Below, piece after piece: positions 7,307 through 40,450 of a stretch of 64,000 bases of DNA. Numbering within the stretch: the stretch's first letter is position 1; each line of letters opens with the position of its first letter. The notes beneath the pieces were generated by a model. The model ran no database searches. It was not told where the DNA came from and was given only the letters and a program-made list of their open reading frames with translations. The stretch comes from Nitrospirota bacterium (GTDB lineage Bacteria > Nitrospirota > Thermodesulfovibrionia > Thermodesulfovibrionales > UBA6898), in assembly GCA_024275975.1 (NCBI GenBank), contig JAJRYC010000038.1, positions 13,955 to 77,954 of the forward strand, read 5' to 3'. A program made the translations under genes and the position numbers.

Positions 7307-9013
7307 TCATCTCTTTTTTGACCGCATCGCCTTCATTTTATAGTTAGGCTCTGCGTATTCCACTTCAGGTATGAGCGAAAATTCCCGGATAGCGTCTTCC
7401 ACAGTCCGCCCTTCCCCAAGCTTTACAAGATAAACCCTGACATGTTTCATGACCTTAATTACAGACCCGCCTTCCTGGGCGATTATCTCCTCTGCCGCGT
7501 CATTTGTGACGCCTTCCATGAATTTGACCAGAATCTCTCCCTCTACATACTGATTCTCCACTTTAGCGAACTCCTTCTGTTTGCTCTTTGTAATCGAACC
7601 GAGACCCTCCGCGTCCTTGATGACATGTGGGGTGATAAAGATCAAAAGGTTCGTCTTTTTCTTCGAGACGCTTTTGGTCTTAAACAGCCATCCCAGAACA
7701 GGGATATCACCGAGAATAGGCACCTTGGCAAGGTTTTCCTCGTCCCTCTCTTCCATCAGGCCGCCGATTACTACTGTCTGGTTGTCCTTCACAACAACTG
7801 ATGTTCGAGTCGAGCGCTTTGTGGTCGATGGACCGACACTTATAAGGATATCATCGCTGGCGTCCTGCTTTACCGACGATATCTCCTGGTATATATCGAG
7901 CTTTACATAATCTCCCTTCGTAATCTGGGGCGTTATCCTGAGTGTTATTCCGACATCCTTTCTCTCTATCGAGCTTAGGACGGTATTCGCGGTCGTGATG
8001 TCCCGCTCTCTCTTTGAGATGAAGGGCACATTTTCACCGACGATAATCTCCGCCTCCTGGTTGTCCGATGTTAGCAGTTGAGGCGTCGAAAGAACGTTTA
8101 CCGCGCCCCGAAACTCATTCATGCTAAAGAGAGCGGCGAACCCAGGGACGGAAAGAGTTGATTCCACAAGAGACCCATTTGCGTCTATTGTCGTCATGGG
8201 GATATCGAAGTAATTACCCATGCCTCCTCCCGTAAGACCGGTCAACCCGTAGATCAGTGACTGCAGAGCAGACCCATCCATCGTCCCGAATCCTCCTATT
8301 CCGATCGGCTCTCCATTATGAGTCCCCATCACCCTCCATTTTGTCCCGAGTTCCCTTAATTTATCAATTGACGCCTCCACAATCATCGCCTCGACAAATA
8401 CCTGCCTTCTCCTCTTGTCAAGTTGTTTTATGACGCGCACCAGATTTTGATAATCCGAGGGTGACGCAACGATCACCAGGGAATTCGTCGCCTCATCGGC
8501 AGTAATATTTATACCACCGGCTGACTCGAACGGGGTCATCGCCACCCCCCCCTTTTTTGTCTTTTTCCGGGGCGACGCGCCTTTTATTATTCGTGACAGC
8601 ACTTCCGCCAGTTCAGTGGCGTCGGCATTTTCAAGTGTATAGACATTTATCATCCCCTGCGCATCCGGAGAAGGCACGTCAATCGCCGCAATGAGGGATT
8701 TCATCGATTCTCTCCTGCCTTTATCACCAAAGAGTATAACAGCGTTCAGTCTCTGGTCGGCCACTGCCTTTGTCTTTTTCATCCTGGACTGCTTCCCGGG
8801 CGCACCCCTTGCCCTGCTCTGTCCGATGCCTTCATTAATCATCTTCGCGACTGCGTCAGCGCTCGAAAACCTGAGGAAAACAATATCCGGCTCCTCCCTC
8901 AATGAAGGCTGGTCTATTGCATCAATAATCGAGAGTACTTTTTCAATATTAAGCCCTGAATCTATTACAAGAAGCATATTGCCCGGCCCAAAGTCAGAGA
9001 CATAGCCGTTCAT
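7307..9013 (-). CDS. gspD: Secretin GspD, N1-to-C-terminal portion (same gene and frame as 9050-9511), with an extra C-terminal domain
   Basis: Secretin-core blocks VLSTPQLLTSDNQEAEIIVGENVPF, VVIGGLMEE, VPILGDIPVLGWLFK, NLLIFITPHVI. The start at 9013 is in frame with the upstream ORF across two TAG codons. Confidence 0.9.
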   Translation of the reverse strand: MNGYVSDFGPGNMLLVIDSGLNIEKVLSIIDAIDQPSLREEPDIVFLRFSSADAVAKMINEGIGQSRARGAPGKQSRMKKTKAVADQRLNAVILFGDKGRRESMKSLIAAIDVPSPDAQGMINVYTLENADATELAEVLSRIIKGASPRKKTKKGGVAMTPFESAGGINITADEATNSLVIVASPSDYQNLVRVIKQLDKRRRQVFVEAMIVEASIDKLRELGTKWRVMGTHNGEPIGIGGFGTMDGSALQSLIYGLTGLTGGGMGNYFDIPMTTIDANGSLVESTLSVPGFAALFSMNEFRGAVNVLSTPQLLTSDNQEAEIIVGENVPFISKRERDITTANTVLSSIERKDVGITLRITPQITKGDYVKLDIYQEISSVKQDASDDILISVGPSTTKRSTRTSVVVKDNQTVVIGGLMEERDEENLAKVPILGDIPVLGWLFKTKSVSKKKTNLLIFITPHVIKDAEGLGSITKSKQKEFAKVENQYVEGEILVKFMEGVTNDAAEEIIAQEGGSVIKVMKHVRVYLVKLGEGRTVEDAIREFSLIPEVEYAEPNYKMKAMRSKKR

Positions 9014-9049
9014 CTATACAATCGGTTTTATCAGCCTGAGGGCATCGTC

Positions 9050-9511
9050 CTAGGATATATTCTTCAGAGTCATAAGCCTGGCGATATAACTTTCGTTTAC
9101 AGGCTGTCCATCATAAGAAATTTTAATGCCCTTCTGCTTTGCCTCGGCAACAGGAATAATCTTGTAAGCATCCACACCCGATGGCACAACAGTAAAACCT
9201 TTAAGCTCAAGGATGGACGTAAAAAGGTTATACGCGTCATCAACGTTCAGTTTGGAGGGGGCTATTATTGTTATATTTCCCTTCACCCTGTTATCGAAAA
9301 TAAAGTTCTTGCCGGTAATCTCACTTATAAATTTAGTTACTGTAGACAGTTCGACATCCACGAAATTAAAGGTGACCTCTTCGTCTTTTACGGTCTCCGC
9401 AAAGGCTGGTGTGGCGGCAAGGGAGGAAAGAAGAAGGATATATGATAAAACAAGAAACAATAATACAGCAGAAAGATGGAGACTACAGGATAAAACAATA
9501 TTTTTTTTCAC
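9050..9511 (-). CDS. gspD: Secretin GspD, signal peptide + N0 domain portion (ends at an in-frame TAG)
   Basis: Signal peptide followed by the N0 block VTFNFVDVELSTVTKFISEITGKNFIFDNRVKGNITIIAP...AYNLFTSILELKGFTVV. The stop at 9052-9050 is TAG, and the frame continues into 7307-9013. Confidence 0.85.
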   Translation of the reverse strand: MKKNIVLSCSLHLSAVLLFLVLSYILLLSSLAATPAFAETVKDEEVTFNFVDVELSTVTKFISEITGKNFIFDNRVKGNITIIAPSKLNVDDAYNLFTSILELKGFTVVPSGVDAYKIIPVAEAKQKGIKISYDGQPVNESYIARLMTLKNIS

Positions 9512-10734: not shown

Positions 10735-11067
10735 ATGAAGAAATATTTTTCAACAGTCTGCCTGATTCTGCTGTTGGGAGGCTGCGTAACAACAAATGGT
10801 CTGAATATTATATCCCCGACATTACCGGAAGATGAAATCGAGGAACATGTAGAGAGAATACTTAGACAGCAATCTCAAGCCGTGCCTCAAGCCGTGCAGG
10901 AAGAGAAGCCGGCAGAGGTCGTAAGAACACCATCCGCCGGGATTTCAGTCCCGGAAAACCCCCAGCCGCATAATTGCGAAACCAGGGATGCCTTGATCAA
11001 TCTACTGATAAAAAAGGGGATTATAACCAGAAAAGAATTGCTTGATGAAGTGCGGAACCTGAAATAA
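10735..11067 (+). CDS. Small lipoprotein, unknown function
   Basis: An internal ATG at 10735 is preceded by AAAGGAG. It gives MKKYFSTVCLILLLGGC, a lipobox with Cys. The track ORF starts at 10606. Confidence 0.45.
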   Translation: MKKYFSTVCLILLLGGCVTTNGLNIISPTLPEDEIEEHVERILRQQSQAVPQAVQEEKPAEVVRTPSAGISVPENPQPHNCETRDALINLLIKKGIITRKELLDEVRNLK

Positions 11068-11430
11068 TTGGAGAAAAATAATTTCAGATCGGGAGAAAGT
11101 TCGAAATAACTGCTTTTCATCTATTTTACGGCGGGGTATTTTCTCTTGACATATTAGCCGAAAGTATATGATCATATCGAAATTTCTTAGTTGATAGTTT
11201 CAGGGTATCTAATAATAAATAAGGTATATCACCGGAGGATTTCCGGGAAACCTCCAAACATGGAATTCCTGGGATGAGATGAAGTATAACGTTGCGATTA
11301 ATAGGTATAAAACTATGTGGAACCGGCAGGGTGACTATATATATAAGGAGGTGACAGGAGGCAGGACATCTGATGATTATTTCTTTTTTGTTAACATATT
11401 ATCAATTAAAGGATGGGAGGATGAGAAAGG

Positions 11431-13119: not shown

Positions 13120-13131
13120 AAGAATTTAACG

Positions 13132-13434
13132 GTGAGACACGGACTGTTCATCATATTTTTATCTGTCCCATTGATGCTGCTCCTCACCGCAACGGGACCT
13201 CAGGCGAAAGAGATTATAGCCATGGGTCCGGACAGCGGCGACAAGCGGATACAATGGGATGCTAACAAGGATTATGAACAATCCGGTGAAGATTCCGATG
13301 ATAATAGCACGGGGGAGACCCGGCCTTCAAAAGAAGACTGCGGCAGCGGGACTCGGGACGAGTCTCCCCAGGGCTGTTCAGGCGTTCCGGAAAATACAAA
13401 ACCTGAATATGATCTGTCGGATTGCTGCTGTTAG
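13132..13434 (+). CDS. Small secreted acidic protein ending in -DCCC
   Basis: GTG start and a signal-peptide-like N-terminus (RHGLFIIFLSVPLMLLLTATGPQA). Acidic, low-complexity body with C-terminal CCC. No clear SD. Ends at TAG. Confidence 0.35.
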   Translation: MRHGLFIIFLSVPLMLLLTATGPQAKEIIAMGPDSGDKRIQWDANKDYEQSGEDSDDNSTGETRPSKEDCGSGTRDESPQGCSGVPENTKPEYDLSDCCC

Positions 13435-13501
13435 ATTCACAAATGATTTACAGGGAAATATATTATAAATTGAGAAAACTGTTAAGGATGAGGAGGTATT
13501 C

Positions 13502-14152
13502 ATGAGATTCGGAATGAAAAAATGGGGCCTGACGGCTTTAATATTTGCGATGACGTTCGGATTTGGCATACAATCAGTCCAAGCCGGTCCTATGATAAAG
13601 ATAAGTGACCAGTCATGGCTCCTGATTAACTATAGTAGTCAACTTTACGGTGTATGGCGTGACACAGGTTCAGGACCTGACGCCACTGACGACTCCAGCG
13701 ACATCTTCTTCAGGAGAAACAGGCTGACCTTTTTCGGAAAGGCGACAAAGACGCTGAAGTTCAACCTTCAGATCGAACACAAAGGCACCAGGATGATCCA
13801 AAACCTCGGAGTTGATTCTTCACCGGGAGGAGGCCTTGATATCCTTGATGCCTTTTTAATGGCGAAGTATTCCAATGCCTTCAGGCTGAGGCTCGGACTT
13901 ACAAAAGACCCTCTGACCAGGGAAAATAACGAAGGATGTTTCGATCCGCTGACTCTCGACCGGTCGCTGTTCATATACACGCCGTTTCAGGTGTCCCGTG
14001 ACACAGGCTTGGTGGTATGGGGAAATCTGCTCAAAAACAGATTACAGTACAGGGCGAGTATAATGGAAGGCAGGGAGAGCGCCGACACACCCAAGAGCAG
14101 TCTCCGTTATACGGGAAGGGTCCATGTTACGCTGCTTAACCCTGAGTCTTAG
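13502..14152 (+). CDS. Outer-membrane beta-barrel porin (porin O/P-like), N-terminal part ending at an in-frame TAG
   Basis: GAGGAGG RBS, signal peptide MRFGMKKWGLTALIFAMTFGFGIQSVQA, and alternating beta-strand pattern. The frame continues into 14189-14692. Confidence 0.6.
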   Translation: MRFGMKKWGLTALIFAMTFGFGIQSVQAGPMIKISDQSWLLINYSSQLYGVWRDTGSGPDATDDSSDIFFRRNRLTFFGKATKTLKFNLQIEHKGTRMIQNLGVDSSPGGGLDILDAFLMAKYSNAFRLRLGLTKDPLTRENNEGCFDPLTLDRSLFIYTPFQVSRDTGLVVWGNLLKNRLQYRASIMEGRESADTPKSSLRYTGRVHVTLLNPES

Positions 14153-14188
14153 ATCATCTACAGGGGAACTTATCTCGGAAAGAAAAAA

Positions 14189-14692
14189 GTGCTTACACTG
14201 GGCGGTGGCTATCAGTTTGAGCCTGACGTAGCCTATGCGAGCCTTTCAACTCAAGATTTACCCGTGGACAACACAACATGGACAGTTGACGCGTTCTTCG
14301 AGTACCCCACCCCGGCCGGAACATTCACTGTCTCGGGCGCTTATCTTGATGTTGATTTCGATGACGCTTATAAAGGTCCTGATCCTGACCCGGCTGTTTT
14401 TAATGTCCTTGGTGAGAGGAACGGATGGTACGCAAAGGCAGGTTATCTCTTTCCTTCAAAGATCGGTATAGGAAAACTTCAGCTATTCGGTCGTTATGAA
14501 TACTGGAAATTCGCCGAACTTAATGGGATCGGCGACCAGACGATTAAATGGACTGGCCTCGGCATTAACTATCTCATCAACAACCAGAAGTTAAGACTGA
14601 CGGTTGAATACGCCAAGACCGATTATGAAACAGAAGACGCCACGAACAAGGATTTTGATACAGTGACAACGATGGTGCAGTTTATGTTCTAG
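14189..14692 (+). CDS. Outer-membrane beta-barrel porin, C-terminal part (same frame as 13502-14152)
   Basis: The frame is open from 14153. Beta-strand pattern, with a C-terminal beta-signal ending in Phe (TTMVQFMF). It has no signal peptide of its own. Confidence 0.6.
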   Translation: MLTLGGGYQFEPDVAYASLSTQDLPVDNTTWTVDAFFEYPTPAGTFTVSGAYLDVDFDDAYKGPDPDPAVFNVLGERNGWYAKAGYLFPSKIGIGKLQLFGRYEYWKFAELNGIGDQTIKWTGLGINYLINNQKLRLTVEYAKTDYETEDATNKDFDTVTTMVQFMF

Positions 14693-14723
14693 GCCCCAAA
14701 AGCCCGGAGCGATTTTATTCACA

Positions 14724-14760
14724 GGGAAAAGCAGCCTGCCTGCTTTTCCCTTTTTTTATT
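14724..14760 (+). terminator. Rho-independent terminator after the porin gene
   Basis: GGGAAAAGCAG-cctgc-CTGCTTTTCCC (11-bp stem) followed by TTTTTTTATTT. Confidence 0.7.
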
Positions 14761-14823
14761 TATGGCACTGCGGATAACAGCGGAATTCAGCAGCTGGCAT
14801 AAGCGAGTCCGCTGGTTAGGACT

Positions 14824-15014
14824 TTACTTTATTGGTTTTATTCCAATGTCTTTGCAAATCTTTCTTACAATATTATCGTTGATTTCTGAATGCCTTGGAA
14901 TTGATGAGCGTTTGTTTTGACCTGGATTCCACCACCATGAATGACGAGACCGCCCTCTCTGATAAATTCACATCCCTGCGACCGTAGATACTTCAGCAGG
15001 TCATTACGCTTCAT
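14824..15014 (-). pseudogene. hicA: hicA-like toxin, single-base frameshift
   Basis: Frame 1 reads MKRNDLLKYLRSQGCEFIREGG. A second frame reads SRHSWWWNPGQNKRSSIPRHSEINDNIVRKICKDIGIKPIK*. The span is 191 nt, which is not a multiple of 3. The break lies near 14946-14952. Confidence 0.7.
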
Positions 15015-15223
15015 ATCGCAATTTTTTCTTCTACGTATTCCGATCCCCCGGCAGCAATCGCATCTTGACGATTGAATTCCAAAGCCTCTTTCAGTGTAAC
15101 GCGCAGGCTTTCCATTAACTCTTCACGAGTATGTTCCTGGCAGTTCACACCAGGAATTTCCTCTATCCATCCTATCCACCAATCACCTTCCTGCTTTACT
15201 ATGGCAGTATATTCCGTGTTCAT
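15011..15223 (-). CDS. hicB: HicB-family antitoxin (UPF0150-like)
   Basis: 70 aa, MNTEYTAIVKQEGDWWIGWIEEIPGVNCQEHTREELMESLRVTLKEALEF. Its stop overlaps the hicA ATG (ATGA). Confidence 0.75.
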   Translation of the reverse strand: MNTEYTAIVKQEGDWWIGWIEEIPGVNCQEHTREELMESLRVTLKEALEFNRQDAIAAGGSEYVEEKIAI

Positions 15224-15663
15224 ACACTTACTCCTTTTAGATCGTTATATTTATTTTATGTTACCAAATAATATACCCATCCCGCTATCAATTTTATTTC
15301 CATAACAATTTCAATATGTTCTGGATACCCGAAGACCCCCGATCGGAGTCGAGGGCAGGCTTCGGGCATGACAAAAACAAAAAATGGCGATTTATAAACA
15401 GACTCTAATTAGCAATGAGTAATAGTTTTTGCCACTGCATGTATCCGCGGAATTATATCTGTGGTGAAGGAGAATGTACGCTCTTATAACTTTATAGTGG
15501 CAAAAAACCACTGTCTGCTGATATAACAGAAAAGGATAATTATCTCACCATCCCTCTATTTGCGGGAATCTCCAACTTGAAAAATTCAACCTTTTAAAGC
15601 AGTTCTATTGCTATACTTAATGTTTTACCTTCACTTATATCAGCGCATTTAATAATTTCTTTT

Positions 15664-16560
15664 TTAGTTCAGAGTTGCCCGCTCTCTCTTTATGGCATCC
15701 GCGACCCTCGCGACTTTCGCCATCTCTTTAACGTCATGGACACGGACGATGTCCGCGCCTTTTATTATCGAAATCGCCACTGCTGCCGCCGTGCCTTCGA
15801 TCATCTCGCCCGCAGGGGCGCCATCGAGTATGTTTCCGATGAAGGCCTTTCTTGAAGGACCTATGAGCACCGGCTTTTCGAGCATGGTGAATTCATTGAG
15901 GTTATTTATTATCTGAAGGTTATGATCAAACGTCTTTCCGAACCATATTCCGGGATCGATTATAATCATATCATCGGGGATACCGAATTTTTTCGCCAGC
16001 CGGATGCCGGCCCTGAAATAATCCATTATCTCCGGGATGAGGGCCTCGTATTCAGGATTATCCTGCATATTCCTTGGCACACCTTTCATATGCATCATCA
16101 CGACAGGGACCTTATATTCCGAGACGACCATCGGCATTCCGGGGTCGAATCTCATTCCGCTTATGTCATTGACTATCGAGGCACCCGCCTCAATCGCCTG
16201 TTTTGCGACCTCGGCCTTACAGGTATCTATAGAAACCGGTATATCAACTTTCCCTGAAAGCGCTTCGATTACCGGCACTACGCGATCCAGCTCTTCGTCA
16301 ACAGAGACCGGCTCGGAACCTGGCCTTGAGGACTCGCCTCCGATATCAATTATGTCAGCGCCGTCATCAACCATCCTGAGGGCACGATCTACCGCCATTG
16401 ATTTATCGAAATACAGCCCATTCTCAGAAAAGGAATCCGGCGTTACGTTCAGGATTCCCATTATACAGGTCTTTTCAGAAAAGTCTAATGAATAGTTTTT
16501 CCAGGCAAGTCTCAAGTAGCGGGCCTCAAGCCTCGGCGACCCCCTGTAGATCAGCCTCAT
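15664..16560 (-). CDS. folP: Dihydropteroate synthase
   Basis: Pterin-binding blocks [36 protein letters not shown]. Located downstream of ftsH, as is common. Confidence 0.9.
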
Positions 16561-18334
16561 GAATAAGCTGGTCTACCTCCTTCCCGTCCATCGTCTCCTT
16601 TTCAAGGAGTCTCTTCGCAAAGGAATCAAGCAGCGTCTGTTTATCCATAAGAAGGGCCTTCGCGGCCTTATAGGCGTCTAATACGATACGTTTGACCTCT
16701 TCATCAATCTCCGCGGCGGTCTTTTCACTATAGTCCTTGTGCTGTGATATCTCCCGACCGAGGAATATCTGCTCTTCTTTTTTACCAAAAGTGACAGGAC
16801 CAAGCTTATCGCTCATCCCCCATTCCGTTACCATCTTTCTAGCTACGTCGGTGGCGCGTTCAAGGTCGTTGCCGGCGCCTGTCGTCATATGCTTCAGTGC
16901 TATCTCTTCGGCGGCCCTGCCGCCCATGAGAACCTGCAGAGTCTTTATCAGGTATTCCCTTGAATAGGTATATCTTTCATCTATCGGAAGCTGCTGTGTT
17001 ATCCCAAGCGCCCTGCCTCTCGGTATTATACTCACCTTGTGGATAGGGTCCGTGCCGGGTGTAAGCCTTGCGACCAGTGAATGTCCAGCCTCGTGGTACG
17101 CGGTATTCCTATTCTCTTCATCACTTATGATCATGCTCTTTCGCTCCACACCCATCAGAACCTTGTCTTTCGCGGCCTCGAAATCAGAACTCTCCACCTT
17201 GGTCTTTGCGCTTCTGGCCGCGATAAGCGCGGCTTCGTTTATCAGGTTAGCAAGGTCCGCACCGGTAAATCCGGGCGTTCCCCTGGCAATTTTCTCCATG
17301 TCCATATTCTCGTCTATGGGTATGTTTCTTGTATGTACTTTCAGTATCGCGAGTCGCCCCTTGACATCAGGCTGAGGCACCACCACCTGCCTGTCGAACC
17401 TCCCCGGCCTCAACAGGGCGGGGTCGAGCACATCAGGCCTGTTAGTCGCGGCAATGATTATTCTGCCCTCATTGCCTTCAAAGCCGTCCATTTCAACCAA
17501 TAGCTGGTTAAGTGTCTGTTCGCGCTCGTCATGACCTCCTCCGAGTCCGGCCCCTCTGTGTCTTCCGACAGCATCAATCTCGTCGATAAAAATTATACAT
17601 GGCGCGTTCTTCCTGGCCTGTTCAAACAGGTCTCTGACCCTCGATGCGCCGACACCCACAAACATCTCGACAAAATCCGATCCGCTTATGCTGAAAAAAG
17701 GCACACCTGCCTCGCCCGCGATCGCCTTGGCAAGCAGTGTCTTGCCCGTACCGGGCGCGCCGACGATAAGAACTCCCTTTGGTATCCTGCCGCCCAGTTT
17801 CTGGAATTTCTGAGGGTCCTTGAGAAAGTCTATTATCTCCTCCAGCTCCGCCTTCGCCTCTTCTATGCCCGCGACGTCCGCAAAGGTTATTTTTACGGAC
17901 TTTTCAGGAACAAGCCTCGCCCTGGATTTTCCGAAAGACATCGCTTTGTTTCCCCCGCTCTGCATCTGGCGCATGAAAAATATCCAGATTACGGCGATGA
18001 AGATTATAGGTCCCCATGTAAAAAAGAGGTTAATGTACCACGGGTTCTGGTCGGGTGGCTTCACGGTAATTTTTACGTTCTCCGCACGCATTTTCTCGAC
18101 GAGCTCGGGATATTCAGGGGAATACGACCTGAACTTTGTCCCGTCCTTCAAACGGCCTGTAATGGCATTCTCCTTTATCGTAACCTCATCGACATCCCCG
18201 GCATCAAGCATCGTCATAAACTCGGAAAAGATCAGCTCTTCCTGGATCTTTTTCGGAGCGTTTAAAAGATTAATCAGCAGGAGTATCAGTAAAGCAATCA
18301 GCACCCAGATAAATAGATTTTTATATGCAGTCAA
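16526..18334 (-). CDS. ftsH: ATP-dependent zinc metalloprotease FtsH
   Basis: Two N-terminal TMs, Walker [14 protein letters not shown], an SRH region, and the HEAGH zinc motif. Confidence 0.97.
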
Positions 18335-18541
18335 TATTTTCCTCCATAAATTTTATATATTTTAACACACGGAAAACATTATTTTCAGCTATTGGAGAAC
18401 AGTATTGAAATATCCCGGCTGTCATTTCGAATAAAGCGGGAAATCTTTAAAATGACACAACCATGGAATATTGATATACGGATTCTCTCCAGCGATCGGA
18501 AATGTCCGCCGCCTGATCCCGTCCGCTGCCTGAAATACGGT

Positions 18542-19279
18542 TCAGCGCGCCGGGGCACTAAATATATTTTCCAGCATTTCCTTCTGTTTAGAGATCAGTT
18601 CCGAGATGCCTTTTCCAGCTAGAGCGATAAGATCATTCAGTTTTTCCGTTGAAAAAGGCTTGCTTTCGGCCGTGCCCTGGATTTCGACCACATCTCCACT
18701 ACCCGTCATGACTATATTCATATCCACCTCGGCGGAAGAATCCTCCTCATAACAGAGGTCAAGCAACACCTCGTTGTTAACTATCCCGACACTTATAGCG
18801 GCAAGGTAGTCCCTGATCGGATTTTTCTCTATAATACCGTTTTTCAGGGCGTATCCCATTGCATCGGCGAGACAGATGAACGCCCCGGTTATCGCCGCCG
18901 TCCTCGTACCCCCATCGGCCTGTATAACGTCGCAGTCCACCCAGAATGTCCTCTGCCCGGTCAGGTTAAGATCGACGACCGACCTTAATGACCGCCCTAT
19001 GATTCTCTGTATTTCATGTGTCCTGCCGCCTACACGGCCGATGGACGATTCTCTTGAAGTTCTGCTCTGTGTGGCCCTGGGAATCATGGAATATTCAGCT
19101 GTTATCCATCCCCTGTTCTGGTCCCGCAGAAAAGGAGGCACTCTATCCTCTATCGAAGCAGTGCAGATGACCCTTGTCCCGCCCAACTCTATGAGTACGG
19201 AGCCCTCCGCGGTGCTGATAAAATCCCTTGTAATTTTGATGTTTCTCATCTCATCGTTTTTTCTGCCGTCGGTCCGCAT
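18542..19279 (-). CDS. rph: Ribonuclease PH
   Basis: [20 protein letters not shown]..., with [19 protein letters not shown]. Confidence 0.95.
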
Positions 19280-19452
19280 AAATATTATACCTCCATCTCC
19301 ATCTCTATTTTTTTTATAAAATCTATCTTCCTGCCCAAAAAATTCTCGCCGACACTAACAAATCTTTCAGTGGAATCCGTCACGTAAAATTTATGGACAG
19401 CATCATCCGGGCCTGTCCTCCTCAGGGACAGTTCATTCAGAACATTTTTTAC

Positions 19453-20124
19453 CTATCCGGCGGTTTCGACCGCAGAGTCGATGAGGGTGACTGTTTCACT
19501 CATGACCTTTGTTATAACATTCTTCAGGAGAGGATAATGAGTGCATCCGAGCACCAGGGTGTCCACGCACTTGTCCCTGATATTATTCAGGTATGTTTCG
19601 GCTATCATTTCGGCTATTCTGCCTTCAGACCATCCTTCTTCAACAAGGGGGACAAAGAGCGGACAGGCCAGGCTGAATACCTCGACATCACCGTCAACCT
19701 CTTTTATCGCCCTGGTATATGAAGAGCTTTTTATGGTGGCTTCAGTGCCTATCACACCGATTTTTTTATTCTTCGAGCATGAAACAGCAGCCCTCGCGCC
19801 GGGCTTTATGACACCCAACACCGGTACGGGCACGGAACGCCTGATAGCGTCCAGACTTACTGACGATGCTGTGTTGCATGCTATAACGAGCAATTTAATA
19901 TCTTCTGAAATTAGGAACCTGGCGTTCTCGAAAGAGTACCGGGTTACTGTTTCCGGAGACCTTATGCCGTAAGGGACCCTTGCCGTATCCCCGAGATAGA
20001 CGGTATTTTCAAAAGGCAGTTCCCTGAATATCTCCTTTAATACAGTCAGACCTCCAATGCCTGAATCGAATATGCCTATCGGCTTTTCTTTTTTATTCAT
20101 CGGAAAGTCTGCTGCTGTCCTCAT
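19453..20124 (-). CDS. murI: Glutamate racemase MurI (ORF stops at in-frame TAG; conserved C-terminus continues in frame to 19285)
   Basis: [13 protein letters not shown], with catalytic-Cys blocks ACNTAS and GCTHYPLL. After TAG 19455-19453, 55 more in-frame codons encode a MurI-like C-terminus. Confidence 0.9.
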
Positions 20125-20686
20125 ACGCGGTTATAACCGTACTTTTTAATTTATATTTCAGATAAAAATGGCCGCCGAGAGTCTCTATCTCCTTTCCATC
20201 AACAAGTATCTTGAAATCATTGAAGTCCCGCAGATTTGAAATAAGACTCTCATAAATGCCTTTCAGGATCAGATATTCCGAAAGCGCGTCACCCTGGAAA
20301 TTCCTGCGTAATTCATCCGACAAATCTATATAAAGAATATTTTCATCGTCTTTATACAGGCCGAGAAATTTAACATCCTTCGGTATATTGGTTCCGCGCG
20401 AATCCTCATTTCCCTTGAAAAACTCTTCTATAACAGCCTCTGCCAGGGCAATCTGTTTCGTCCGTTTAGGTATTTTTTTCTCGACCATGCGGAGGCCGTC
20501 TTCATCCGGATAATAAATTCTCAGGTAGGAAAAGTCTTCGAACACCGGGAGGCCGTTTTCAGCAGTTATCACGGCATCCGGCTTTCCACGCGGCTGAAAA
20601 ATCTTATCCCGCATAAAGTACATGGAGATAACGCCGATGGATAAAATCAGCAGCAAAAGCCATATCAGGTTCTTTTTACTTTTCAT
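20093..20686 (-). CDS. GerM/GerMN-domain lipoprotein-like protein
   Basis: N-terminal TM or signal sequence. GerMN-like blocks ([11 protein letters not shown]...AVIEEFFKG...LYIDLSDEL...[14 protein letters not shown]). It sits between the amidase gene and murI. Confidence 0.55.
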
Positions 20687-21692
20687 ACGCCGTTATCCCA
20701 TTTTCATAAGCTGCAATACCTTCCATTATCGCCGCTACGAATGCCGCGCGCGTTTTTTTGTTGTATTCATGATATTGCGGAGATGGATATTCTATCAGAA
20801 CGGCCGGTGTGTCCATGGAATTCAGGATCGGGAGGGGCAACTCTTTCAGAACAACATCGACTTCCAGTCCCTTTTTTATGGATTCTCCGATGTTGTAGGC
20901 AAGATCCCTGCTTTTCTCGATATACCTGTTCTGCCTTGAGGACTGCCTGTAGAGCGTAACAATGGCGTCGGCATCCATGTCATTAGTTGATGAAATATAA
21001 ATCCTGCACTTTCCGGTGAAGGATGAATGGATGCTGACAAAAATGTCCGCCCTTTTGCCGTACGAAAATTTTATTCTGCTGTCTATGCTGGAAGCCCTGT
21101 CCACGTTCCGCGTAAAAAATACCTTTTTGCCTTTCCCTGAAAGCGCCCGGCCCAGATCCCGTGCCAGTTTCAGGCTGAGATCCTTCTCTTTTGTTCTGTC
21201 TGAAACAATGCCGTAATCATACCCACCATGTCCCGCGTCTATGGTCAGAGCATCGACAACATTAGTCTTTAAGGCAGGCTGCCCCCCTTTCAGCATCGGG
21301 TTTCCCGAGGAGGTAAGATCAATTACCAGCCTTGGCGGCGTCGAAAGTTTATACACCTTTACATCAGAGATATCTTCCAGATCTATTATCAGGAAACGAC
21401 CCACCTCCATCATATCAAAAAAGAAGCCTTCCTGTTTTTCAAGCAAAAACCTGGAGGGAAATGCTATTTTTATATTGGATAAAGTCGATATAGTGTCTGC
21501 GTTGGCAATAGTATACTTATCGGATTCCAGGACTATCCTTATATTATTTTCATGGCGGCTGAACCTCAGGGATACATTGCTTTTTTCCTCCGCGAACAGG
21601 CTCACCGTTGAAATCAGGCTGATTATAATTATCAAAATTACTTTCTTCACGTTACTATACATTTTCCATATATGAATGAGGTTTTGCAACAT
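20676..21692 (-). CDS. amiC: N-acetylmuramoyl-L-alanine amidase (AMIN domain + Amidase_3)
   Basis: AMIN-like N-terminal domain (LRFSRHENNIRIVLESD...RLVIDL) and catalytic block IDAGHGGYDYG...VSIHSS. The true start may be an internal Met (MYSNVKK). Confidence 0.8.
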   Translation of the reverse strand: MLQNLIHIWKMYSNVKKVILIIIISLISTVSLFAEEKSNVSLRFSRHENNIRIVLESDKYTIANADTISTLSNIKIAFPSRFLLEKQEGFFFDMMEVGRFLIIDLEDISDVKVYKLSTPPRLVIDLTSSGNPMLKGGQPALKTNVVDALTIDAGHGGYDYGIVSDRTKEKDLSLKLARDLGRALSGKGKKVFFTRNVDRASSIDSRIKFSYGKRADIFVSIHSSFTGKCRIYISSTNDMDADAIVTLYRQSSRQNRYIEKSRDLAYNIGESIKKGLEVDVVLKELPLPILNSMDTPAVLIEYPSPQYHEYNKKTRAAFVAAIMEGIAAYENGITAYEK

Positions 21693-22013
21693 ATGGGTAA
21701 TCGGGAATCCAAAACATTATTCAGGATAAAACAATCGCTGGAATACTGGTTGGCAATGGAAAGTACTATTAAATCAGCCGGATACGTAAAAAATCTTCGC
21801 CGGCCGTGACCGTATATTCCTGATCGCACCGACAGTTCCAGGCACCTCAAAATAAAATCCTGCTAAAATGATAAACCATTCGGAATAAAAAGGTATAATT
21901 ACAGAGGAAATATTTATCCAGTGACCCTCCGGATGGATGAGTGGGCGGGCCTTATCACACTGCCAGATCCGATAATAAATTTTATATTTTCGAAAGGAGT
22001 TAATAAACAGGGA

Positions 22014-22721
22014 ATGGAAGATCTCAAAACATCAGAAACATGGCGTGTCTTCAAAATTCAGTCGGAACTTGTTGATGGGTTTGAAACCCTGCATGGCCTC
22101 GGCCCCGCGGTGACCATCTTCGGCAGTTCAAAGCTTATGTCCGGCAACAAATACTATGAGGACGCGGTTACAGTGGCAAAGATGCTTGCAGATGACGGCT
22201 TTGCCATAATTACTGGCGGAGGCCCCGGCATCATGGAAGGCGCAAACAAAGGCGCCAAAAAAGGCAGATCCCAATCTGTCGGTCTTAATATAGATATACC
22301 GGCTGAACAGGCACCGAACATGTACCAGGACATCTCTCTCTCTTTCAGGTATTTTTTTATCAGAAAACTCATGTTCATTAAATATGCCACCGCATATGTA
22401 ATCTTTCCGGGAGGCTTCGGCACAATGGACGAGCTGTTCGATGCCTTAACTCTTTCACAGACCAAAAGAATAGACTCATTCCCCATAATACTATATGGAT
22501 CTGATTACTGGAAGGGACTGATTGACTGGCTGAAAAAAACACTGGTGGCCCAGGGTACAATAAAGAGAGAAGACCTGGCGCTGTTCTCCATGGTCGACAG
22601 CCCGAAAGACGTCCGCTTTCTTGTCAAAGAGCATTTCAGGGTCTTTGGCGGTGTCAAACCCAAACCCAAACCCAAACCCAAACCCAAATACAAATACAAA
22701 AGAATAAAGAAAACGGAATAA
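22014..22721 (+). CDS. LOG-family (TIGR00730-type) nucleotide-binding protein with a KP-repeat tail
   Basis: GGGPGIMEGANKGA and PGGFGTMDELFD motifs. Start placed at MEDLKTSETWRVF; the track ORF opens at GTG 21921. C-terminus KPKPKPKPKPKYKYKRIKKTE. Confidence 0.8.
   Translation: MEDLKTSETWRVFKIQSELVDGFETLHGLGPAVTIFGSSKLMSGNKYYEDAVTVAKMLADDGFAIITGGGPGIMEGANKGAKKGRSQSVGLNIDIPAEQAPNMYQDISLSFRYFFIRKLMFIKYATAYVIFPGGFGTMDELFDALTLSQTKRIDSFPIILYGSDYWKGLIDWLKKTLVAQGTIKREDLALFSMVDSPKDVRFLVKEHFRVFGGVKPKPKPKPKPKYKYKRIKKTE
22656..22697 (+). repeat. Hexanucleotide microsatellite (AAACCC)5(AAATAC)2 inside the LOG gene 3' end
   Basis: Direct reading of the sequence. It encodes the (KP)5(KY)2 tail. Confidence 0.95.
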
Positions 22722-22817
22722 TTCCTGGACCGGCACAATACACTTGCAGGCATATAGAAGCACCCTTTTATTAACGGATGAAAGACATATGGCCGGGAAT
22801 TTAAATCCCGGATGTTC

Positions 22818-24029
22818 TCAGAGCTCAAGCATGCTTTTACCCTTGTTTTCAAGTGAATACCATACAGAGAGATAATCCCTTATCTGTCTGGTTATAAGGA
22901 AATTATTTCTTATATATTCCTTGCCTTCAACGCCCATCCTTTTCGCCATTGCCGGATTTGTAAGGATCTGCCTTATCCTGAATGCCGCCCCTTCAACTGA
23001 ATGGACAAGGAACCCCGTAACACCATGTACGATCTGCAATGGTATTCCACCTGTAGCACCCCCGATTATCGGTTTCCCCTTCCACATGGCTTCCGAGACC
23101 GTAAGACCGAATCCCTCCTTCAGGGATTTCTGAAGAATAACGTCCGCTATTCGCTGCAGTGCGTTTATGTCCTTATCACTAAAAGGCGGCAATAAAAGGA
23201 CATGAATGTCAGGGTCGGAAGCTGCGTGTTCTCTCACTTCCGCTAATACGGCCTCCCCTTCCGGGTCGTCTGTAGCCGGACTTCCCGCAAGGATCAATAT
23301 GCAGTCATTATATCTCTTTACGATTCTGTAAGCTTCAATTACGCCTATGGGATCTTTAAACCTGTCGAATCTCGATACCTGGAGGACTATCGGCCTGTCT
23401 ACGGGTATCCGCAGTCTCTCGATGGTCTCATCAATCTCCTCTTTTGTCAGTTCCCTGTTCTTTTCGCTCAGTGGGTCGATGGAAGGAGGGATAATAAATT
23501 CATCTATAGGCATCGCTTTCGCGAACTTCGCGACGGAGAAGACAGCGGCATCATATTTTTCACAGTATTTCTTGAGATAATCGCAGACTTCCTTGTCCGG
23601 ATTCGCGACATCGATATGGCAGCGCCATATCCACTTTCCGTTTTTCCGGAAGTCGATAAGCGGCACCGGCTGCGGGTCGTGGATTAATACCGCGTCCGCC
23701 TCAAGGTCCAGTCGCTTAAGGTTCCTTCTATTAACCTCGAAATGATACTGCCACATCTCACCTGTGATCTCTTCGGCATTGCCCTGCAGCGCATTATGCA
23801 GTTTTTTGGTTATTTCATAGAATTTTTCGTCACCTTCTAAAACTTCCCATCTCGTTTTCACGCCGAGTTCATTCAGCATGGGTATCATCCTGTGCAATAT
23901 TTCGGCTACTCCGCCCCCTTCACGGGTGGAATTCACATGAAGAAAGGTCCTGCCCTCCAGTTTTTTGCAGATTTTCTGTAAAAGCAGCAGATCACCCTTT
24001 GGGGCCACTCCTATATAATCACTGAGCAT
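22818..24029 (-). CDS. treT: Trehalose synthase TreT-like GT4 glycosyltransferase
   Basis: Blocks recalled from archaeal TreT: FLHVNSTREGGGVAEILH, HNALQG, HDPQP, WRCHID, PPSIDPLSEKN, EGFGLTVSEAMWKGKPIIG. Confidence 0.75.
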   Translation of the reverse strand: MLSDYIGVAPKGDLLLLQKICKKLEGRTFLHVNSTREGGGVAEILHRMIPMLNELGVKTRWEVLEGDEKFYEITKKLHNALQGNAEEITGEMWQYHFEVNRRNLKRLDLEADAVLIHDPQPVPLIDFRKNGKWIWRCHIDVANPDKEVCDYLKKYCEKYDAAVFSVAKFAKAMPIDEFIIPPSIDPLSEKNRELTKEEIDETIERLRIPVDRPIVLQVSRFDRFKDPIGVIEAYRIVKRYNDCILILAGSPATDDPEGEAVLAEVREHAASDPDIHVLLLPPFSDKDINALQRIADVILQKSLKEGFGLTVSEAMWKGKPIIGGATGGIPLQIVHGVTGFLVHSVEGAAFRIRQILTNPAMAKRMGVEGKEYIRNNFLITRQIRDYLSVWYSLENKGKSMLEL

Positions 24030-24742
24030 TATTGTATAACCTCCATTTCCTTCCTGACTTCAGCCTCCACCGCATCCACGATATGCTCTCTTATGCCCTC
24101 TATGCTGTGCATAAAGGGATCAATTGCCTTCAATTTCTCAACAAGTTCATGCTTGCCGAGGACCTGCTCTATCCATAAAGAGAAATCGTCGAACCCGCTT
24201 CCCAGGCGATACCTAGCCTCGTAAAAATGGTAGTATATACATCCAGAATCCACATATTTTATCGCAATCAGGAACTGGGCGAGGTTTTCAACCCTGACGC
24301 CGACGGGAAAAACAACAATTATAGACTCATTGAAATAAAATTCGTCACCGTGGATCGCCTCCCTCGGCTCCGGGAAGCTTTTGAGGTAGTTGTCTATTAT
24401 CTTCAACAGGTTGTTTCTAACACCACTCATCTCTTTGAAGTCATACGGATCCAGGTTTGAGAGCTGCTCTGAAAGCGCCCTTTCCTCCAGGCTCTCCCCG
24501 GCCCAATGGGCAAAGTCATTGGTATATTCGAGAATATGGCCCTTTAAAAAATACTGGTAAGTATGATGAAATATGCATGCATCGCTTGAAGTAGATAAAA
24601 TATCCCTCAGCTCACGCAGACTTTTTGCCTTTTTCCCTGTCGATTTAAGGATACTGACACATTGCCTGAATTCAAAGGCCTTGCTTACTTCTTCGGTAGC
24701 TTCCATGCTCTTCGTGCTTTCCGTAGCTTCTGATTCTTCCAT
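24029..24742 (-). CDS. Conserved hypothetical protein coupled to treT
   Basis: Start at MEESEATE (24742) is preceded by GAGGAGG. Its stop overlaps the treT ATG. I recognise no catalytic motif. It may belong to a DUF family that travels with glycosyltransferases; this is unverified. Confidence 0.5.
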   Translation of the reverse strand: MEESEATESTKSMEATEEVSKAFEFRQCVSILKSTGKKAKSLRELRDILSTSSDACIFHHTYQYFLKGHILEYTNDFAHWAGESLEERALSEQLSNLDPYDFKEMSGVRNNLLKIIDNYLKSFPEPREAIHGDEFYFNESIIVVFPVGVRVENLAQFLIAIKYVDSGCIYYHFYEARYRLGSGFDDFSLWIEQVLGKHELVEKLKAIDPFMHSIEGIREHIVDAVEAEVRKEMEVIQ

Positions 24743-24818
24743 TCCGTCGCCTCCTCGGATAAACTTTTCGGCAAAGCCGCGTATAATTTGCAAATAAAAG
24801 GTTGGTTGAGAAACCGTA

Positions 24819-26078
24819 TTAAATCCTGTCCCCGCTTTTTTCTTCGGCAAGGGCTAAAACCGGTGGGTTTAATGAAGTCAGCCGGGCGTTCATCTCATCT
24901 CTGTATTTTCTGAACCCGGCCATCAATCTTTCCGGCACTGAATCTACACGCGGAGCCTTTATACGATAAGGATTAACGGGTTTATTATTCACTCTCATCT
25001 CGTAATGAAGATGCGGCCCCGTTGCGAGCCCCGTCGCTCCGACTCTGGCGATAATCTGTCCCTGCTTTACCTTTGTCCCTTTTTTAATGCCCTTTCCGAT
25101 CCTCGACAGATGGCCGTAATATGTCTTGTACCCATTGTGATGTTTTACTATGACGAGCTTGCCAAACTGTCCCTTGTATCCGGCGAAAATAACGGTCCCG
25201 TCACCGACCACAGAGACAGGCGTTCCCCTGGGAGCGGAATAGTCAATCCCGTGATGCGGCCTGTTGATCTTTAATATAGGATGAAACCGTCCGTTGGAGA
25301 ACCCGGAACTTATACGCCTGTAATTCAGCGGCGCCTTAAGGAACGCCTTCCTCAAGGATTTCCCCTCCGGATCAAAGTAATCGGCGTCCTCACCGTCCCC
25401 AAACCTGTACGCCCGGTAGATATCGCCATTATTCTGGAATTCCGCGGACAATATATGCCCGTATTTTCTGAACTCGCCATCAAGATACAGACCCTCGACA
25501 ATAACCTTGAACAGATCGCCTTTTCTGAAATCCGTCGTAAAGTCGATATCCCATGCGAATATATCGGAAAGCTCGAGCGCGACCATCAGATTCTCTCTTC
25601 CATCACCAATTGCCGAAACAAGGTTGTCCTCTATTATTCCCGCGATATTGAATATCTTTTTCTCATATTGCACCGGTACCTTTTCGGCGCTAAATCCTGA
25701 TTCCGTCCGGGTAATATTCAGAATTGTGTCGTCATTTATCCAGTAGACAAATGAATTTATCCTGTCATCCGTATCCAGCATTATGCTATATTGTCGGCCG
25801 GGGTATAATTCCCGGAGTCTGTGGACGCCCGCCGATGCCTCCTTTAACCTGAAAAGATCGGCAATGCTGATACCGTATTTTTTGAAAATATCAAAGAGTG
25901 TCTCTCCCTTCTTTATATTGCCCTTAATTTCACGATATTCTTCAGGTGGGGAAGAGGCATCTCCGGCAACGGTCTCTGAAGGCAGGTCTTTCTCTTTTTT
26001 ATGACTACCGTCAAAGCTGGCGCGCAATGTAAAGAATGTTATGATCAGGAAGACGGCAATTATTATCGAATTTCTCAT
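24819..26078 (-). CDS. M23-family peptidoglycan DD-metalloendopeptidase
   Basis: N-terminal TM, LysM/OapA-like segment (KGETLFDIFKKYGISIADLFRL), and M23 motifs HHGIDYSAPRGTPV and GPHLHYEM. Confidence 0.85.
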   Translation of the reverse strand: MRNSIIIAVFLIITFFTLRASFDGSHKKEKDLPSETVAGDASSPPEEYREIKGNIKKGETLFDIFKKYGISIADLFRLKEASAGVHRLRELYPGRQYSIMLDTDDRINSFVYWINDDTILNITRTESGFSAEKVPVQYEKKIFNIAGIIEDNLVSAIGDGRENLMVALELSDIFAWDIDFTTDFRKGDLFKVIVEGLYLDGEFRKYGHILSAEFQNNGDIYRAYRFGDGEDADYFDPEGKSLRKAFLKAPLNYRRISSGFSNGRFHPILKINRPHHGIDYSAPRGTPVSVVGDGTVIFAGYKGQFGKLVIVKHHNGYKTYYGHLSRIGKGIKKGTKVKQGQIIARVGATGLATGPHLHYEMRVNNKPVNPYRIKAPRVDSVPERLMAGFRKYRDEMNARLTSLNPPVLALAEEKSGDRI

Positions 26079-27783: not shown

Positions 27784-28498
27784 ATCAGCCCCATTCAGGT
27801 ACTGCCCGGGATGCGGTCACGGCCTGCTTCAAAGGCTTATAGCCGAATGCATAGACTCCATGAAACTCAGGGGAAAGACCATTGGCATCGCACCCGTGGG
27901 ATGCGCTGTTTTTGCGTATAACTATTTCGATTTCGATATGCTCGAAGCCGCGCATGGACGCCCTCCGGCCGTTGCGACCGCACTTAAGAGAACAATGCCG
28001 GATAAAATAATTTTTTCTTATCAGGGCGACGGTGATCTTGCAGCCATCGGCACGGCCGAGATAATACATGCGGCCAACAGGGGAGAGAATTTTTCCGTCT
28101 TTTTTGTAAACAATGCCACGTATGGAATGACAGGCGGGCAGATGGCCCCCACCACACTCCCTGGGCAACGCACAACGACGACCCCCGAGGGAAGGAATAT
28201 CAGCACATCCGGTTATCCGCTTCACGTCTCGGAGCTTCTCTCGACAATTGAGGGGGCGTCTTTCATCCAGAGAGTATCAATAGACTCATATGAAAACATC
28301 CTGATTGCAAAAGACGCCATAAAAAAAGCATTTCGTTATCAGATCGAGGGCAAGGGGTTCAGCTTTGTGGAAATGCTCTCGCCCTGCCCGACCGCCTGGC
28401 GGCTGTCGCCAAAAGAATCCCTTGAATGGATCAGGACCGACATGGTCCGGGAGTATCCTCCCGGCATAATAAAAGACAAATTCATGGAGAATAATTAA
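27749..28498 (+). CDS. korB: 2-oxoacid:ferredoxin oxidoreductase beta (TPP-binding) subunit
   Basis: MRKIFRRPRSLKSAPFRYCPGCGHG..., with GDGD...NNATYGMTGGQ. The ATG at 27749 overlaps the GGDEF gene end by 35 nt. Confidence 0.85.
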   Translation: MRKIFRRPRSLKSAPFRYCPGCGHGLLQRLIAECIDSMKLRGKTIGIAPVGCAVFAYNYFDFDMLEAAHGRPPAVATALKRTMPDKIIFSYQGDGDLAAIGTAEIIHAANRGENFSVFFVNNATYGMTGGQMAPTTLPGQRTTTTPEGRNISTSGYPLHVSELLSTIEGASFIQRVSIDSYENILIAKDAIKKAFRYQIEGKGFSFVEMLSPCPTAWRLSPKESLEWIRTDMVREYPPGIIKDKFMENN

Positions 28499-29739: not shown

Positions 29740-29772
29740 CTCCCCTCTTAGGCAGAGGGGTTGGGGGGATTT
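29740..29772 (+). repeat. REP-like palindromic element, variant copy
   Basis: TCCCCTCTTAGGCAGAGGGGTTGGGGGGATTT contains the hairpin CCCCTCT/AGAGGGG. It matches the copies at 53406 and 63634. Confidence 0.7.
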
Positions 29773-29791
29773 GTTCAATCAAGCGACTTCT

Positions 29792-31363: not shown

Positions 31364-31372
31364 ATTACCGAA

Positions 31373-37873: not shown

Positions 37874-40450
37874 ATGTTAGAACTGACTCCATTGATGAAA
37901 CAGTATTTCAGTATCAAGGAAAACCACCTTGACGCCATCGTCTTCTTCAGGCTGGGTGATTTCTACGAGATGTTCGGGGAAGACGCCGAGAACGCGTCAA
38001 AAATCCTCCAGATAACACTGACAACAAGAGAGAAGACCAGGGACAATCCCATCCCGATGTGCGGCATACCTTATTTCGCGTCGGAGTCCTATATATCCAG
38101 GCTGATAAAGGCCGGCTATAAAGTCGCCATATGCGAACAGACGGAAGACCCCAGAGAGGCAAAGGGCATTGTATCGAGAGAAGTGGTCAGAGTGATCACG
38201 CCCGGCACGCATGTTCCGGAAAATCCGAAAGAAAATATTTATATTATCAGCATCTTTCCTTCTGGAAAAAAACACGGCATCGCTACGGCCGATATCTCCA
38301 CGGGGGAATTCATCGTTTTCGAGACCGAAGAGAATATCGAGGATGAGATCAGCAGATTCGAGCCGAAGGAAATCATTATACCGGACAGCATCAAAGATGA
38401 CATTCATTACAGCGAAGTCCTTTCGGGATTCAACGTTTCCACTATAGATGACTGGGTCTTTGATTATACCGAGGCATACAGAACGCTCCTCAAGCGATTC
38501 AGGGTGTCCTCGCTGGAAGGATACGGGTGTGAAGGGGAGACGTCGGCTATTTCGGCCGCCGGTGCACTTATAAGCTACCTTGAAAATACGCAGGAGGGTT
38601 TCCCGGCCTTTAAAAAAATCACAACGCTTAAACAGAACTCGTTTATGTTTATAGACGCGGCGACACAGCGCAACCTTGAGTTGTCCCGCAACCTGAAAGA
38701 TGGTTCGGGAGAAGAAACCCTTCTGTGGGTCCTTGACGAGACCTTGACGCCGATGGGCGGCAGGTTACTTAGGGCCTCGCTGCTCCGCCCCATGACAAAT
38801 GCCACGGAAATAAGATCGCGCCACGCTGCGGTGGAATACCTTATAGAGGATTTTGAACTGCAGGAAGAACTCCGCAATTCATTAAGAAAGGTGCAGGACA
38901 TCGAGAGACTGACCTCAAAGGTATCATCTGGAACCGCGAATGCAAGAGATCTTGCCGCAATAAAAAATTCCCTTTTGAATCTTCCGGTAATAAAAAGTTC
39001 CCTTTCAGCGTCCAGGAACGACTATTTCAAATCTCTGTCCTATGAGATCGCGGAATTTTCTCTTCTTAAGGATCTCCTGGAAAAGAGCATCATAGACAGC
39101 CCTCCAATTACTGTAAAGGACGGTGGCATAATCAGAGAACAATATGACAAAGAAGTCGACGCTCTCAGGAATATCTCAACAAAAGGCAAGGATTTTATAT
39201 CAGACCTCGAGATAAGGGAGAAGAAAAGGTCTGGAATATCCTCGCTGAAGATCGGATATAACAGGATTCTGGGCTACTATATAGAGGTAACCAAGTCAAA
39301 CATTGATATGGTACCTGAAAATTACATAAGAAAGCAGACACTGGTGGGAAGCGAAAGATTTATCACGGATGAACTGAAAGAATACGAAAACAAGGTGCTC
39401 GGCGCCGAAGAGAGGCTGAAAAATCTCGAATATGAGCTATTCAGGAAAATCCTTGCATCCGTAAAGGAAGAGATCGGCGCGCTCTTTAAGGCCGCTGGAG
39501 TACTCGCAGTGCTGGACTTTCTTTTATCGCTGTCAGTGGTAGCCAAACGTTATAATTATATCAGGCCCGTCATTGTAGAGGAGAGCCTGATAGACATTAC
39601 TGATGGAAGACATCCTGTCCTCGAGCGCATATTATCAGCCGAGAGATTCATACCAAACGATACCTTTATCGACGGCCTTGACAGCAGGCTCCTGATTCTT
39701 ACAGGTCCTAACATGGCAGGAAAGTCCACTTATATGAGGCAGGTCGCCCTTATCGTGCTGATGGCGCAGATGGGGAGCTTTGTCCCCGCGGCATCCGCGA
39801 AAATCGGGATTACAGACAGGATTTTAACCCGCATCGGCGCATCTGATTTTCTGTCAAAGGGACAGAGTACATTTATGGTTGAGATGATAGAAGCGGCGAA
39901 TATTGTCAATAATGCGACTTCGCAAAGCCTGATTTTGCTTGATGAGGTCGGCAGGGGCACCAGCACTTTTGACGGAATAAGCATTGCATGGGCCATAGCG
40001 GAAGATATCCTGAACAATATAACCGCGCGCACGCTATTTGCGACGCATTACAACGAACTAACGGAACTGGCCCTCGCTCTGGATGGCGTAAAAAACTACA
40101 ACATAGCCGTCAAGGAATGGGGAGATGAAATAATTTTTCTCAGAAAAATCGAAGAAGGCCCGGCTGACAAAAGCTATGGCATACAGGTTGCCAGGCTGGC
40201 GGGCATGCCGGAGAGTATTCTAACCCGCGCCAGAGCGGTGCTCAACAACCTTGAAAAAGAGGAGCTCAATCAATACGGCAAACCCAAACTTGCCGGCAAA
40301 AAATCAAAAGCGCAGAGAGAACAACTCGACCTGTTCTCTTCCGTGAATGAGTCGATAGTGGCTGAAATCCGTAACCTTGATATAGACGGCCTTAATCCCG
40401 AGGACGCGCTTTTAAAACTTGGTGAACTGCAAAAGAAGCTTGAATTTTGA
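37874..40450 (+). CDS. mutS: DNA mismatch repair protein MutS
   Basis: MLELTPLMKQYFSIKENHLDAIVFFRLGDFYEMFGEDA, Walker A GPNMAGKST, then DEVGRGTSTFDG. The track ORF opens earlier, at 37817. Confidence 0.97.
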   Translation: MLELTPLMKQYFSIKENHLDAIVFFRLGDFYEMFGEDAENASKILQITLTTREKTRDNPIPMCGIPYFASESYISRLIKAGYKVAICEQTEDPREAKGIVSREVVRVITPGTHVPENPKENIYIISIFPSGKKHGIATADISTGEFIVFETEENIEDEISRFEPKEIIIPDSIKDDIHYSEVLSGFNVSTIDDWVFDYTEAYRTLLKRFRVSSLEGYGCEGETSAISAAGALISYLENTQEGFPAFKKITTLKQNSFMFIDAATQRNLELSRNLKDGSGEETLLWVLDETLTPMGGRLLRASLLRPMTNATEIRSRHAAVEYLIEDFELQEELRNSLRKVQDIERLTSKVSSGTANARDLAAIKNSLLNLPVIKSSLSASRNDYFKSLSYEIAEFSLLKDLLEKSIIDSPPITVKDGGIIREQYDKEVDALRNISTKGKDFISDLEIREKKRSGISSLKIGYNRILGYYIEVTKSNIDMVPENYIRKQTLVGSERFITDELKEYENKVLGAEERLKNLEYELFRKILASVKEEIGALFKAAGVLAVLDFLLSLSVVAKRYNYIRPVIVEESLIDITDGRHPVLERILSAERFIPNDTFIDGLDSRLLILTGPNMAGKSTYMRQVALIVLMAQMGSFVPAASAKIGITDRILTRIGASDFLSKGQSTFMVEMIEAANIVNNATSQSLILLDEVGRGTSTFDGISIAWAIAEDILNNITARTLFATHYNELTELALALDGVKNYNIAVKEWGDEIIFLRKIEEGPADKSYGIQVARLAGMPESILTRARAVLNNLEKEELNQYGKPKLAGKKSKAQREQLDLFSSVNESIVAEIRNLDIDGLNPEDALLKLGELQKKLEF

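Follow-up and report, generated by a model that had tools for sequence, protein, structure and literature searches.

An in-frame TAG in murI of a Nitrospirota bacterium, probably a private substitution of damage type

The interrupted murI gene

The DNA analysed here, referred to as the window, is a 64-kb stretch (64,000 nucleotides) of the genome of a Nitrospirota bacterium. It carries the glutamate racemase gene murI followed by rph, and the reading frame of murI contains an amber codon. The features of the locus are the following.

19285..20124, minus strand: full reading frame of murI, 279 codons including the TAG, plus the TAA stop; assigned from the translation, TIGR00067 and the same frame in relatives
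19453..19455, minus strand: in-frame amber TAG in murI; the substitution is at 19455, which is A on the plus strand and C in relatives (GAG>TAG on the coding strand)
19288..19452, minus strand: the 55 codons 3' of the TAG, conserved MurI C-terminal helix-strand-helix (VKNVLNEL...FYVTDS...FLGRKI...); assigned from PDB alignment, HMM bits and 14 orthologues
18542..19279, minus strand: rph (RNase PH), with its ATG at 19279, 5 nt 3' of the murI TAA; Pfam RNase_PH in relatives

The first ATG of murI is at 20124, from where the ORF runs for 223 codons to the TAG at 19455-19453 (codon 224 of 279). An alternative start at ATG 20100 would give a gene of 271 codons. The stretch after the TAG (VKNVL...EMEMEV) is open to the TAA at 19287-19285, and the Shine-Dalgarno sequence of rph (GGAGG) is inside the last murI codons. 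An initial annotation had proposed that murI is cut by this TAG, that the TAA and the GGAGG fit the spacing to rph and that the full gene is the 279-codon reading. The sequence and its translation bear out the interruption and the layout, profile scores confirm the identity of the gene, and close relatives call the same frame at 279 aa.

Scores against the TIGR00067 model are 270.2 bits for the read-through protein and 257.7 bits for the truncated one (+12.5), both above the cut-off of 146.65, which places the protein in the MurI family; PF01177 is also named for MurI. With NF002035 the scores are 315.1 and 288.2 bits, the part downstream of the TAG adding 27 bits. The best PDB matches are glutamate racemases (E = 1e-76), and the read-through protein aligns without gaps to the structures 2vvt/2jfo, 1zuw and 2jfu, to query residue 257-268. 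At the position aligned with the TAG, the enzymes of E. faecalis, E. faecium and B. subtilis have Glu (ETVGEV, ETAREV). The catalytic motifs FDSGIGG, IACNTAS, VEEG and LGCTHYP, which include both catalytic Cys motifs, all precede the TAG and match the corresponding motifs of 2jfo and 1zuw in the alignment; the roles of the catalytic residues (D/S motif, CNTA, E, GCTH) have been described (PMC6927343). Homology to MurI/RacE (TIGR00067; 2jfo, 1zuw, 2jfu) is thus full-length and includes the C-terminal 55 residues, the difference being that the ORF is interrupted in the window and intact in the relatives. From the PDB alignment, the HMM bits and an identical 3' end in relatives, these 55 codons are the genuine MurI C-terminus, as the initial annotation had it, rather than a chance open frame.

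In solved MurI homologues the segment lost to the TAG is ordered and belongs to the fold. The C-terminal helix-strand-helix of MurI folds back against the N-terminal domain, and a 223-residue product is therefore unlikely to be stable and would probably be non-functional. Production of MurI as two polypeptides was considered and rejected, as the sequence after the TAG has no ATG, GTG or TTG preceded by a Shine-Dalgarno sequence.

The codon at the TAG position in relatives

The window was compared with three independent public assemblies from its own Nitrospirota species: NCBI GCA_006240915.1 (VAPF01015108), Logan SRR14803400 and JGI 3300001391 (SWIR1). Each of these contig sources encodes an Rph protein identical to that of the window, and identity between the window and these contigs is 99.5-99.6% over about 10 kb. 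All three have GAG (Glu) at the TAG codon of murI. In the 276 nt around the site, the TAG/GAG base is the sole difference between the window and the three assemblies, and the 3' end of murI downstream of the TAG is base-for-base identical. The NCBI and Logan copies are complete, with murI called as one 279-aa Asp_Glu_race gene (ORF intact in contigs L001 and L002). The JGI contig (L003) is cut inside murI and has the 3' part only, with GAG at the site and indels of its own further upstream.

Alignment to orthologues had been proposed as the means of identifying the residue under the TAG, and this was done for 13 more distant orthologues of Nitrospirota and Deltaproteobacteria type. All have a sense codon at the site, which is E in 9 and otherwise A, R or D, and none of the 13 has an internal stop in murI. 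By GTDB representative genomes the lineage falls within Nitrospirota, the best match among them being the MAG DY22_TVG17_BIN105, with 96% MurI identity. When metagenome contigs were scanned for the murI site with N in place of the variable base, the GAG allele alone was found, on a known GAG contig. Exact look-ups of the truncated MurI (223 aa and 215 aa) found no record in protein and contig collections from which the window's own contig is absent. Exact look-ups of four other window proteins likewise gave no match, each differing from the relatives' version. Because the near-identical assemblies and the distant orthologues have a sense codon at this position, the metagenome scan found GAG only and the truncated products are unrecorded, the murI TAG is a Glu codon altered by a single G>T change private to this sequence.

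In-frame TAGs and private substitutions across the window

Three further private in-frame TAGs, which the initial annotation did not include, are present in two other genes.

7307..9511, minus strand: gspD, secretin gene (type II secretion), with two private in-frame TAGs
9050..9052, minus strand: first gspD TAG; TCG (Ser) in the three near-identical relatives
9014..9016, minus strand: second gspD TAG, 12 codons after the first; TCG (Ser) in the three near-identical relatives
13502..14692, plus strand: Porin_O_P-type porin gene, with a private in-frame TAG at 14150..14152

In two complete copies (L004 and L005) gspD is intact and encodes 734 aa. The porin TAG is TCG (Ser) in L003, the sole relative covering the site, and the two halves of the porin match the N-terminal and C-terminal parts of a single Pfam model, PF07396. 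A codon-usage scan of the six frames found exactly four in-gene stops in the 64-kb window, all of them TAG; its remaining matches are ordinary same-frame gene junctions or antisense noise, and it detected neither TAA nor TGA in frame within any gene of the 64 kb. Internal stops across murI, gspD (two) and the porin gene are thus of one codon type only, and a purine directly follows each of the four TAGs.

TAG is also a normal terminator in the window, ending at least six genes (about 6 of about 53): those for the porin (14690), CimA (29792), ThiS (35183), TPM (47229) and PK_C (49977), and a 275-aa ORF (56435). Five of the six have the same length in the gene calls of the relatives, the 275-aa ORF being outside the relatives' coverage.

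Conserved coding sequence beyond an in-frame TAG could in itself suggest programmed recoding, with UAG read as pyrrolysine, reassigned genome-wide or passed by a dedicated readthrough signal in murI. Pyrrolysine decoding takes place at in-frame UAG codons in methylamine methyltransferase genes, and murI resembles these in having UAG in frame within a conserved ORF that is otherwise intact. The differences are that the murI position is not conserved, even at 99.6% identity, that murI is no methylamine methyltransferase and belongs to an unrelated family, and that no pyl genes are seen in the window annotations. Programmed recoding is not supported, because TAG shows no depletion as a terminator, with at least six normal genes ending in it, the TAG sites correspond to two different ancestral amino acids (Ser at three, from TCG, and Glu at one, from GAG) and the relatives are without the TAGs. 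It is considered highly improbable. Nothing specific was found in a literature search for MAGs with amber codons in frame. Any hint in the initial annotation of a designed or conserved readthrough is likewise not supported, given the GAG of the relatives and the sense codons of the 13 orthologues, the TAG being one of 24 apparently unselected changes. Its interpretation is partly supported, in that a real and otherwise intact murI is interrupted, with a private substitution of damage type as the cause.

Private substitutions were polarised against the near-identical relatives over 31,721 bp of the window (5150-11100, 13800-25291, 27874-29400 and 37700-50450), the last two segments being compared via contigs found through MutS. 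A total of 79 were found, the main classes of which are as follows.

Transitions: 48 (31 synonymous, 9 missense, 0 nonsense, 8 intergenic); omega about 0.14; P = 7.5e-9 versus neutral
G:C>T:A: 24 (6 synonymous, 12 missense, 4 nonsense, 2 intergenic); omega about 0.73; P = 0.45 versus neutral

The contrast in omega between the two classes shows that the window has two layers of private change, one of strain divergence, of transition type and under purifying selection, and one of directional, unselected G:C>T:A. The latter amounts to ~7.6e-4 per bp (~7.6 per 10 kb). It is directional, since the reverse class A:T>C:G has 3 private events only against the 24, and, unlike in the transitions, its nonsynonymous/synonymous ratio is at the neutral expectation. 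All four internal stops (murI, gspD twice and porin) are in the G:C>T:A class. Two missense changes of the class are at conserved residues.

15945, minus strand, in folP (15664..16560): private G:C>T:A giving FolP G206W, in the DPGxGF motif of dihydropteroate synthase
39826, plus strand, in mutS (37874..40450): private C>A giving MutS F651L

The FolP change puts Trp in place of an invariant Gly, where DHPS structures read LDPGIGFAKT at the aligned segment, and residue 651 of MutS is Phe in 120 of 120 homologues. Both changes, in enzymes that are essential or core, look damaging and are of the same unselected class as the TAGs.

The window has no frameshifts relative to the relatives in the compared regions, so the anomaly is limited to substitutions. 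Against the two best relatives, the only in-gene indel is a private 12-bp in-frame insertion (22679-22690) in the KPKPKP C-terminal repeat of a LOG-family lysine-decarboxylase-like gene (21921..22721); a 1-base gap at 11164 is intergenic. The JGI 3300001391 contigs L003 and L006 have single-base indels that fragment ftsH, murI and gspD, an indel type of assembly error of which there is none in the window. Three tracts of the window (29500-37600, 3900-5150 and 11100-13550) are ~5% divergent from relatives that are 99.6-99.8% identical on either side. The differences in these tracts are mostly synonymous, and such a mosaic is typical of homologous recombination between strains.

Origin of the TAG codons

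All four stops are G:C>T:A changes, the class is unselected and invariant residues of FolP and MutS are struck, and on these grounds the murI TAG is attributed to the damage-type layer. It is probable that the TAG is a private G>T of this type, a data artefact or a very recent mutation, and that it is not specially decoded. The murI of the organism would then be an ordinary 279-codon gene, with GAG changed to TAG in this genome copy only, as part of a G:C>T:A layer peculiar to this sequence, which selection has not filtered. The physical cause may be oxidative (8-oxoG-type) damage to the template or library, fixed into the consensus, for example where coverage was low or amplification started from a single template; a mutY/mutM-like burst of mutation in the very recent past would produce the same pattern. 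The likeness to an 8-oxoG-type consensus error or a mutY/mutM deficiency is that GAG to TAG is a single change within the unselected 24-versus-3 excess of G:C>T:A.

Several observations count against this reading. The 8-oxoG-type spectrum predicts that GAA>TAA and GGA>TGA are commoner, whereas the nonsense changes of the window are all TAG and mostly from TCG. The probability that four nonsense changes are all TAG is 0.0125 under a neutral C>A model, and that of three TCG>TAG among 24 G:C>T:A events is 0.0012. In-frame codons make up 129 of the 989 TCG trinucleotides, all three TCG>TAG events are in frame, and two are only 12 codons apart in gspD. In addition, ~7.6e-4 per bp of consensus error in one class is very high for a contig of at least 64 kb free of indel errors.

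Three other sources of the TAGs were considered and rejected. For a systematic error linked to a motif, such as basecalling at a methylation motif, only 3 of 159 TCGA and 3 of 162 CCTC sites are changed. A mutational hotspot at TCG was rejected on 3 of 24 C>A events, against a background share of 6.7%, and zero out-of-frame TCG>TAG. A deliberate or codon-wise swap of TCG for TAG does not agree with the persistence of in-frame TCG codons (for example in murI NTASS) or with the one TAG that comes from GAG.

The restriction of the stops to TAG would be accounted for in a natural amber-suppressor strain. Such a strain would carry a tRNA(CUA), for example a supD-like tRNA-Ser with CGA->CUA, and would still make full-length MurI, GspD and porin. 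UAG would be partly decoded and TCG>TAG nearly silent, with MurI receiving Ser or another residue in place of Glu. In E. coli, supD (serU) is an amber suppressor in which the anticodon of tRNA-Ser is changed from CGA to CUA. By analogy, it would make TCG>TAG a Ser-to-Ser change, tolerate UAG only and allow UAG in an essential gene. The four in-frame TAGs, with zero in-frame TAA or TGA in 64 kb, fit this, and TCG>TAG, in three of the four, is the codon counterpart of the CGA>CUA anticodon change. The murI position varies among orthologues (A, R and D besides E), and a purine following UAG is a context favourable to suppression in E. coli. In contrast to a supD strain, the 64-kb window has no tRNA genes (ARAGORN), relatives at 99.6% identity are without any of these TAGs and other unselected, damaging changes lie alongside. 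These same-class changes strike invariant residues, which suggests that selection is absent from the whole layer. Suppression would also extend some of the genes that end in TAG, for example by 75 codons past the porin stop. A neutral TAG leaves a ~6x excess of TAG-creating changes unexplained, with a Bayes factor of ~4 over the neutral model. Since a suppressor accounts for the lack of TAA and TGA without explaining the surplus of TAG, it is a minority reading and an improbable one. The fuller proposal, of an uncultured hydrothermal-vent Nitrospirota whose natural suppressor has let UAG accumulate, mostly by TCG>TAG and including the essential murI, as a first step of stop-codon capture, is slightly less probable still. 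If the TAG were decoded, murI would be an essential bacterial gene that relies on amber suppression, of which natural examples are rare, at the earliest phase of stop-codon reassignment.

The excess of in-frame TCG>TAG suggests selected stops rather than random error, and this bears on a real loss of function. The G>T would then be real, carried by this lineage or by a sub-population that the assembler picked up, with MurI truncated at residue 223 and gspD and porin knocked out too. Either D-glutamate would be supplied by another route (a further murI, a D-amino-acid transaminase or DapF moonlighting as it does in Chlamydia), or the genotype would be a minor or non-viable one. The outer-membrane knockouts were perhaps selected, such proteins being phage receptors. 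Nonsense changes in two dispensable outer-membrane genes, with gspD struck twice, fit selection for loss of function or an already dead gene, and the recombination mosaic of ~5% divergent tracts indicates that the window is from a genuine distinct strain. Against this, murI is essential where tested, in E. coli and S. mutans (PMC6927343), there is no second murI in the 64-kb window as an alternative source of D-glutamate, and the Pfam annotations of relatives spanning 3.9-50.4 kb have no class IV aminotransferase. The gene is otherwise without decay, which in a dispensable gene would be surprising if the event were not very recent, and a change of the same class replaces an invariant Gly in FolP. 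If the loss of outer-membrane proteins was selected for, gspD and porin could be explained, but murI could not, and loss of function is considered unlikely.

A private change of damage type remains the preferred reading, and the interruption of murI is most likely a matter of data quality or very recent mutation, with no biology worth a mechanism. Several genes, namely those for MurI, GspD, the porin, FolP and MutS, are broken or damaged by the G:C>T:A layer. Calls of gene content and of pseudogenes in this genome are therefore not to be trusted without a check of the reads, and an in-frame stop in it should not be taken as recoding.

One further irregular gene in the window lies at the korB/korG junction (28496-28580). 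The gamma subunit of a 2-oxoacid:ferredoxin oxidoreductase, korG, has no ATG, GTG or TTG before its GSGGQG motif. Its frame is that of korB and opens straight after the korB TAA with the codon CTG, which has GGAG 9 nt upstream; gene callers shorten the protein to 156 aa. Because relative L023 has the same DNA at the junction, the arrangement is natural, and korG either starts at CTG or is coupled to korB in some way.
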